From a plasmid: a stretch of 64,000 nucleotides of DNA. Below the pieces are notes generated by a model that searched no databases, was not told the DNA's origin, and saw nothing but the letters and a program-made list of their open reading frames with translations. The stretch's first letter is position 1. Every line of letters begins with the position of its first letter. The stretch lies in the NCBI RefSeq assembly GCF_058153355.1, contig NZ_JBLWLY010000002.1, one strand, 5' to 3'. Positions 10,434-11,070 of the stretch are shown here, one piece after another. Position numbers and translations under genes: made by a program.

Positions 10434-11070
10434 TGAGGTAGCCTGAGTTTAACGTGAGGTAGCCTGAGTTTAACGGACACTCCTTCCTGAAATAGAATGG
10501 CATCAGAAGGAGCCAATAATGAGCAGAAAAACCCAACGTTACTCTACGGAGTTTAAAGCCGAAGCCGTCAAAACGGTTCCTGAAAATCAGCTTTCGCTCA
10601 GTGAAGGCGCTTCCCGATTATCTGTTCCTGAAGGCACTTTAGGACAATGGGTTACCGCCGCAAGAAAAGGGCTCAATACACCTGGCTCCCGCACAGTGGC
10701 TGGAAGTTATGCAACTGCGTAAGGCTTTAAATGAAGCACGACTTGAGCGAGATATATTAAAAAAAGCAACAGCGTATTTTGCCCGGGAGTCGCTGAAAAA
10801 TACGCGTTAGTCGAACAATGGCGACAACAATTCCCTGTTGAAGCGATGTGTCGGGTACCTGGTGTATCCAGGAGCGGTTATTACGACTGGGTACAGCATG
10901 CCCCCTCAGACAGAAAACAAAGTGATGAGCGGCTAAAACTGGAGATTAAGGTGGCACATATCCGCACTCGCGAAACATATGGAACCCGGCGGCTCCAGAC
11001 GGAGCTGGCAGATAACGGAATTATCGTCGGTCGTGACAGACTGGCACGTCTTCGTAAGGAGCTGAGGCTG
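10434..11070 (+). mobile_element. IS600 (IS3 family), 3'-truncated copy with a tandem duplication of its terminal 21 bp
   Basis: Left terminus TGAGGTAGCCTGAGTTTAACG is present twice in tandem (10434-10454, 10455-10475); the element is cut at 11070 by the IS21-family insertion. Confidence 0.8.
10519..10722 (+). CDS. IS600 OrfA N-terminal HTH part (67-aa ORF)
   Basis: MSRKTQRYSTEFKAEAV..; the conserved OrfA C-terminal leucine-zipper segment (LRKALNEARLERDILKKATAYF) lies downstream in a different frame. Confidence 0.7.
   Translation: MSRKTQRYSTEFKAEAVKTVPENQLSLSEGASRLSVPEGTLGQWVTAARKGLNTPGSRTVAGSYATA

Follow-up and report, generated by a model that had tools for sequence, protein, structure and literature searches.

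Three copies of an IS3-family insertion sequence (IS) on this plasmid carry an orfA whose two conserved halves lie in different reading frames, with the N-terminal HTH part closed by an early stop codon and the leucine zipper following in another frame. A first-pass annotation of the sequence assigned the element to IS600 and offered two explanations for the split: descent of all copies from one master element, or a recoding mechanism that it did not recognise. Does this arrangement represent inherited damage or a functional, recoded transposase gene? The question is addressed here for the whole stretch of 64 kb (64,000 nucleotides), referred to below as the window.

Copies of the element and their plasmid setting

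The window is a portion of a Shigella/EIEC invasion plasmid (pINV). It contains icsP (515-1495, minus strand), ospD3 (6377-8074, minus strand) and ospC1 (8410-9822, minus strand), together with two ipaH genes, ospG, parAB and virF, amid numerous IS fragments. Exact matches to the OspC1 and OspD3 proteins were scarce, being limited to very few contigs, and all were entered under Escherichia coli. Therefore, the host appears to be a rare lineage of enteroinvasive E. coli (EIEC). When a 19-kb stretch of the window was compared with PLSDB, coverage by any one plasmid did not exceed 40%. Related EIEC isolates of the SRR8656992 and SRR31441161 lineages are 100% identical to window positions 5487-10129. 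The window is an IS-dense mosaic of the kind typical of pINV, with several more transposase fragments. Additional IS21-family sequences lie at 15949-17750 (IS100-like, with an IstA of 340 aa and an IstB of 260 aa) and at 63250-63930 (an IstB fragment).

Four pieces of the element were found in the window (Table 1), namely two full-length copies (c2 and c3), a copy truncated at its 3′ side (c1) and a separate 3′ fragment. All four are mutually 100% identical by pairwise alignment and BLAST; their common defect is therefore a matter of descent and not a coincidence that requires a statistical test. The orfA sequence of c1 recurs at 21555-21530 (minus strand) and 26409-26434 (plus strand). The sequence on the far side of the IS21-like element that interrupts c1 (13206 onward) is not the remainder of c1. 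Nor are c1 and the 3′ fragment two halves of one copy, since the latter starts at IS position 595 and so overlaps c1 by 22 nt.

Table 1. Coordinates of the element, its parts and its immediate neighbours in the window.
Feature	Position	Strand	Basis or remark
c1, IS positions 1-616	10455-11070	+	BLAST of c3 against the window, 100% over 616 bp; diverges from c3 at 11071
c2, full 1253-bp deleted element	20367-21619	-	Identical to c3 over 1253 bp
c3, full 1253-bp deleted element	26345-27597	+	Identical to c2
3′ fragment, IS positions 595-1253, without orfA region	61637-62295	-	100% identical (BLAST)
Extra direct copy of first 21 nt of left inverted repeat, just upstream of c1	10434-10454	+	
orfA, N-terminal (HTH) half	10519-10722	+	ATG 10519, 67 codons, TAA 10720-10722; ORF list, direct reading
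orfA, leucine-zipper half, +1 frame	10643-10810	+	First ATG 10709, stop TAG 10808-10810; frame translation
Deletion junction, AGCTGGAATCT missing	10702/10703	+	Four-way and pairwise alignment, junction search
Slip heptamer A_AAA_AAA (10759-10765) followed by G	10759-10766	+	Zipper frame
Possible frameshift-stimulating structure	10771-10873	+	Sub-threshold match to Rfam ALIL pseudoknot
orfB start in c1 (HTH_21 region), ended by IS21-like element	10846-11070	+	ATG 10846
GAG codon for E176 of OrfB, in HHSERGSQY	27261-27263	+	c3; also 20703-20701 (c2) and 61973-61971 (3′ fragment)
IS21-like element (IstA 390 aa, IstB 266 aa), cuts off c1 at IS position 616	11071-13205	-	

The best database matches to the element were 1264-bp elements on Shigella and EIEC pINVs, annotated as 'IS3 family transposase' or 'IS3-like element ISSfl11 family'. 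High nucleotide identity places it in the IS600-ISSfl11 group. The assignment to IS600 thus stands at the level of the family but not of the element: 1244 of 1253 shared positions are identical to ISSfl11 (reference L003; 9 substitutions, 99.3% identity outside the gap described below), whereas IS600 proper, from Shigella sonnei, differs by 89 substitutions over 1253 aligned bases (92%).

Several arrangements around the copies are worth recording. Positions 10434-10480 read TGAGGTAGCCTGAGTTTAACG followed by TGAGGTAGCCTGAGTTTAACGGACAC, such that the first 21 nt of the left inverted repeat (IRL) occur twice in direct tandem. It looks as if c1 had inserted at position 21/22 of the IRL of another copy, or as if 21 bp had been duplicated. 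An IR-targeted mode of insertion is reported for IS911 (Loot et al. 2002, as cited in PMC9333248), but it yields IRL-IRR junctions, unlike the arrangement at 10434-10480. The left end of c2 adjoins a 290-bp piece of a different IS3-family orfA (21620-21909); a longer copy of that IS is found at 49815-50512, and the right flank of c2 is not its continuation. The 400 bp beside the right end of the 3′ fragment (61237-61636) are 99.5% identical to 45363-45762, presumably another repeated IS that was a target of the element's insertion.

An 11-bp deletion splits orfA

In each of the three copies with a 5′ end (beginning at 10455, 21619 and 26345), a stop codon closes the HTH half of orfA after 67 codons, as had been claimed, and Pfam HTH_Tnp_1 matched residues 3-58 of this ORF (E=1.8e-14). 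Its final five codons (GSYAT A) are out-of-frame read-through past a deletion. The zipper sequence, LEVMQLRKALNEARLERDILKKATAYFARESLKNTR, sits in the +1 frame relative to the HTH half, as does the slip site, which begins about 5 nt upstream of the 10764-10771 at which the first-pass annotation had placed it. Alignment with intact ISSfl11 (from S. flexneri and from EIEC CFSAN029787) and with IS600 revealed a single, uniquely placed gap of 11 bp, with equivalent junctions at 21372/21371 in c2 and 26592/26593 in c3. The missing AGCTGGAATCT comprises the codons for ELES plus a frame change, and its loss puts the zipper in the +1 frame. All three intact references encode a continuous OrfA of 100 aa (...RTVAELESEVMQLRKALNE...). 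The first-pass annotation had allowed that its frames might be misjudged against a reference with a continuous OrfA; the alignment bears the frames out, and the references are continuous only through the 11 additional bases. The deletion is the derived state, because IS600 and a more distant relative from Salmonella (P0091) both encode AELESE.

None of the copies in the window has a continuous orfA of about 100 aa with both HTH and leucine zipper. The deletion falls at the boundary between the two, and therefore neither an OrfA nor an OrfAB containing both parts would be made. An origin by replication slippage in one 11-bp event was rejected, as no repeat flanks AGCTGGAATCT; two smaller events (5 + 6 bp) are possible. 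Exact-protein look-up returned no record of either the 67-aa HTH product or the 272-aa OrfB, probably because pseudogenised ISs are given no protein products or because the IS lies at contig ends.

Downstream of the deletion the usual frameshift arrangement is retained. As in the rest of the family, orfB is in the -1 phase with respect to the zipper end of orfA and the overlap contains an A-rich heptamer; a -1 shift at this A7 heptamer reads into the orfB frame (KKSNSVFCPG...). The intact ISSfl11 reference L003 is annotated 'programmed frameshift'. A match to the ALIL pseudoknot, a frameshift stimulator of the IS3 family, directly follows the slip site and spans the full length of the Rfam model. 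It is weak, however, with 15 bits (E=0.19) where the gathering score is 50, and the thermodynamic fold of the same segment is unremarkable (z=-1.2). The normal -1 module looks untouched by the deletion. orfB shares its frame with the HTH half, from which three stops separate it (10720, 10732 and 10744).

Could the two halves be rejoined during expression? If ribosomes shifted by +1 (or -2) within 10643-10722, or if transcription slipped there, HTH would be linked to zipper, yielding OrfA and, via the -1 shift at the A7 heptamer, OrfAB. The +1 frame is open for 80 nt ahead of the frame-0 stop, and a shift anywhere in that interval would give an OrfA-like protein. Moreover, +1 slippage does exist within the IS3 family: in IS1447 it occurs during transcription, on a stretch of 7-9 A where orfA meets orfB, a feature conserved throughout its subgroup (PMC6211511). 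However, slippage of the IS1447 kind requires at least 7 A (PMC6211511), whereas the frame-joining region holds no run of 7 or more A or T, its longest homopolymer (10643-10722) being 4 nt. The A7 run at 10759 cannot help, since it lies downstream of three frame-0 stops. In ribosomal +1 sites of the prfB type, a codon liable to shift occupies the P site ahead of a stop or hungry codon, and an SD-like sequence a few nt upstream stimulates the shift. No such signal was seen at the frame-0 stop, where the context is ACT GCG TAA G. Re-pairing on CGU is not open to GCG, and the closest SD-like sequence (GGAAG) is 13 nt upstream. A shift would also restore a protein from which ELES, at the start of the zipper, has been deleted. 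The split is not conserved among diverged homologues; all intact relatives use a continuous orfA, and the derived deletion is private to one lineage.

The last point follows from the distribution of the deletion junction. None of 72,556 plasmids contained it, each full match among them needing the 11-bp gap. Searches of 5,426 complete E. coli genomes, of the species representatives in GTDB and of the JGI metagenomes did not find it either. The only other occurrence was in a draft EIEC assembly (GCA_015332025.1), in a contig (L006) that is 99.97% identical to window positions 27-10453. This contig has a 285-bp remnant of the element beside ospB (L006 10689-10973), which carries the same deletion and is 100% identical to the copies in the window. 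Hence the deletion is genuine and cannot be put down to this one assembly, but it is confined to one lineage.

The two sequences differ at their margins. The L006 contig ends within the extra 21-nt IRL copy upstream of c1. At the left edge of the window its alignment stops at a short tandem repeat of the AAAAGAGC type (window 1-30, L006 10380-10425), the number of repeats in which may differ. In pCP301 and most pINVs a resolvase fragment separates ospB from an IS2 fragment; in L006 the remnant stands in its place, suggesting that an IS mediated an adjacent deletion just beyond the edge of the window.

The occurrence in a second assembly bears on a more trivial explanation, in which some of the copies are in truth intact and were forced to one consensus by multi-mapping reads during assembly or polishing. 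Perfect identity between copies could indeed stem from repeat-collapsed polishing, which would likewise give four perfectly identical pieces, or from gene conversion (see below). However, 11 bp outside a homopolymer is an atypical sequencing error, and an independent assembly made from short reads shows this very deletion in a remnant embedded in unique sequence. No intact ISSfl11 variant with the private SNPs of the window was found in the databases searched. An artefact of this kind is thus improbable.

A second lesion in the catalytic core

OrfB contains the Pfam domains rve, rve_2, rve_3 and HTH_21. Every piece of orfB that covers residue 176 carries D176E, a change that had escaped the first-pass annotation. 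The motif around this residue reads HHTDRGSQY in ISSfl11, HHSDRGSQY in IS600 and HHSERGSQY in the window. Among the 120 best database relatives, Asp occupies this position of H-[ST]-D-x-G-x-Q-Y in 118 of the 119 motif-bearing sequences, the sole exception being a chimeric partial IS600. Another IS3-family OrfB in the window (41996-42718, 33% identical) also has Asp at the equivalent position. The D176E allele, like the deletion junction, was absent from the 72,556 plasmids (best match 98.5%) and from the metagenomes.

A search of PDB sequences with OrfB gave no match. An hhalign comparison of the family profile with the HIV-1 integrase core gave a weak match (E=7.7e-4, probability 25%) that places WVADITY on D64, HHSERGSQY on D116 and MESFW on E152, the textbook D/D/E register. 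The conservation within the family and this alignment together point to residue 176 as the second Asp of the DDE triad. The triad is therefore not intact in the window element: OrfB D116 (in WVADITY) and the Glu of MESFW are kept, and the second Asp is replaced by Glu. In retroviral integrases and MuA, conservative D-to-E changes at these positions severely reduce catalysis. D176E would be a second, independent inactivating lesion.

With IS600 as the outgroup, five derived substitutions fall on the branch leading to the window element (I27L and Q93R in OrfA; E124K, M145T and D176E in OrfB). Each of the five alters an amino acid, with no purely synonymous change among them, compared with two of each kind on the branch of the ISSfl11 reference. 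Although the numbers are small, this pattern may be said to fit a loss of constraint. The suggestion that all copies descend from one master is upheld, as the pieces are 100% identical and have in common both the derived 11-bp deletion and the five derived substitutions.

These changes also weigh on the question of recoding, since D176E and the excess of amino-acid changes indicate that constraint has been lost. An arrangement that is private to one lineage, with the catalytic Asp gone, makes recoding very unlikely, to the point where we give it hardly any credence; the unrecognised mechanism that had been offered as an alternative finds no shift-prone signal and a mutated catalytic core. The split orfA is a case of ordinary IS decay by shared ancestry and not of new recoding. 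It is barely conceivable, too, that the split element is not inert, either because a low-level +1 event within 10643-10722 yields some OrfA or OrfAB, or because its two products regulate IS600-family elements in trans. Candidates for such a role would be the 67-aa HTH-only peptide and a zipper-plus-OrfB protein initiated at ATG 10709 and frameshifted at A7. If this were true, a regulatory role might explain the rise of a dead copy to several copies.

Intact ends, spread and comparison with known systems

Unlike its coding region, the ends of the element are intact (TGAGGTAGCC...GTACACCTCA), forming terminal inverted repeats with a 5′-TG start and a CA-3′ finish. They are identical to those of ISSfl11 and also match IS600 perfectly for the initial 58 nt and the final 27 nt. 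Therefore, a transposase supplied by IS600 or ISSfl11 could act on the element. No intact IS600-family helper was found by BLAST within the 64-kb window, which tells against mobilisation in trans. Among the 5,426 complete E. coli genomes, however, 3,480 contain IS600-family sequence, from which a helper might come.

No 3-bp target-site duplication flanks c2 (GCG versus ACC) or c3 (TTA versus CTG), and no match was found when all left and right flanks were compared, swapped pairs included. The deleted form thus leaves no direct footprint of transposition on any copy, which counts against spread by this route. The absence of duplications, along with c2 flanks that come from different loci, indicates that rearrangement followed insertion. 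Missing duplications are compatible with such later rearrangement and are no argument against an origin within the family.

The c2 and c3 sites are occupied in none of the PLSDB plasmids, among which no record covers at least 80% of the IS plus flanks. FDAARGOS_944 was considered as sharing the c2/c3 site and rejected, as its partial match proved to be a different arrangement. At the c2 and c3 sites and that of the ospB-side remnant, about 140 other pINV plasmids have no IS600-family copy. Such lineage-specific junctions favour new insertions of an already mutated master over conversion of old resident copies. The element thus has the intact ends and the several identical copies at distinct, lineage-specific sites that mark a non-autonomous IS mobilised in trans.

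These sites also bear on whether transposition was needed. Gene conversion or homologous recombination on the plasmid might instead have passed the deletion and D176E on to ISSfl11 copies that were already resident. Consistent with this, even the truncated fragments, which are unable to transpose, are 100% identical, and both the lack of target duplications and the disparate flanks of c2 betray recombination at these copies. However, with the sites empty of IS600-family copies in about 140 pINVs there is no evidence of older resident copies, and we regard conversion as an unlikely, if not negligible, origin of the pattern.

Taken together, these data make it highly probable that the copies are a decayed, doubly defective and non-autonomous derivative of ISSfl11, spread from one mutant master within one rare EIEC pINV lineage. 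In the scheme we propose, an 11-bp deletion in one ancestral ISSfl11-type copy would have split orfA at the HTH/zipper boundary. The same copy would also have gained D176E and the four other amino-acid changes while both inverted repeats stayed intact. The dead element would subsequently have been copied to several new sites on the EIEC pINV, most likely by transposase supplied in trans, presumably from an intact IS600 or ISSfl11 elsewhere in the cell, and later IS-mediated rearrangements would have erased the target duplications. Transposases of the IS3 family, for example OrfAB of IS911, have a preference for acting in cis. Mobilisation in trans would be inefficient on account of this preference, which also tells against spread by transposition.

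The finding has little significance beyond annotation: the copies should be named pseudogenised ISSfl11 (IS600 family), and the label of an IS600 with a novel recoding signal should be avoided. Together, the 11-bp deletion and D176E provide a convenient marker of one rare EIEC pINV lineage. If transposition carried this doubly defective element to its five or more loci, the case would be a natural instance of trans-mobilisation in the IS3 family, with its cis-acting transposases.

The closest known system is ISSfl11 itself (e.g. NZ_CP011417.1, 263027-264290), which has the same inverted repeats, gene order, slip site and kind of host plasmid. It measures 1264 bp against the 1253 bp of the window element, which differs in its deletion-split orfA, D176E and four further amino-acid changes. 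IS600 has the same architecture and A7 slip site, with OrfA and OrfB about 92% identical, but retains a continuous 100-aa OrfA and an intact DDE triad.

The general plan is that of IS911, in which a -1 shift on an A-rich heptamer joins a 100-aa OrfA, with HTH and leucine zipper, to the DDE domain as OrfAB, and in which HTH and zipper both belong to the N-terminal DNA-binding and multimerisation region (PMC2909936). The frames of IS911 are intact, whereas the window element, though it has the same parts and the -1 heptamer, cannot link HTH to zipper. The IS911 leucine zipper is reported to be essential for transposase activity (Haren et al. 1998, as cited in PMC2909936); an HTH severed from its zipper would thus be expected to have lost its function.

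The IS1447 subgroup resembles the window element in that both need a +1 change of frame for a full-length protein. However, in the window element the +1 offset lies inside orfA, is accompanied by no A/T run and results from a private deletion. Literature searches on ISSfl11, on frameshifting to OrfAB in IS600 and on the DRGSQY motif yielded nothing useful. Finally, non-autonomous ISs and MITE-like elements mobilised in trans likewise have intact ends, no functional transposase of their own and several identical copies at different sites. The window element, with its presumed mobilisation in trans, differs in being nearly full length, with only 11 bp lost, and not a short internal-deletion derivative.
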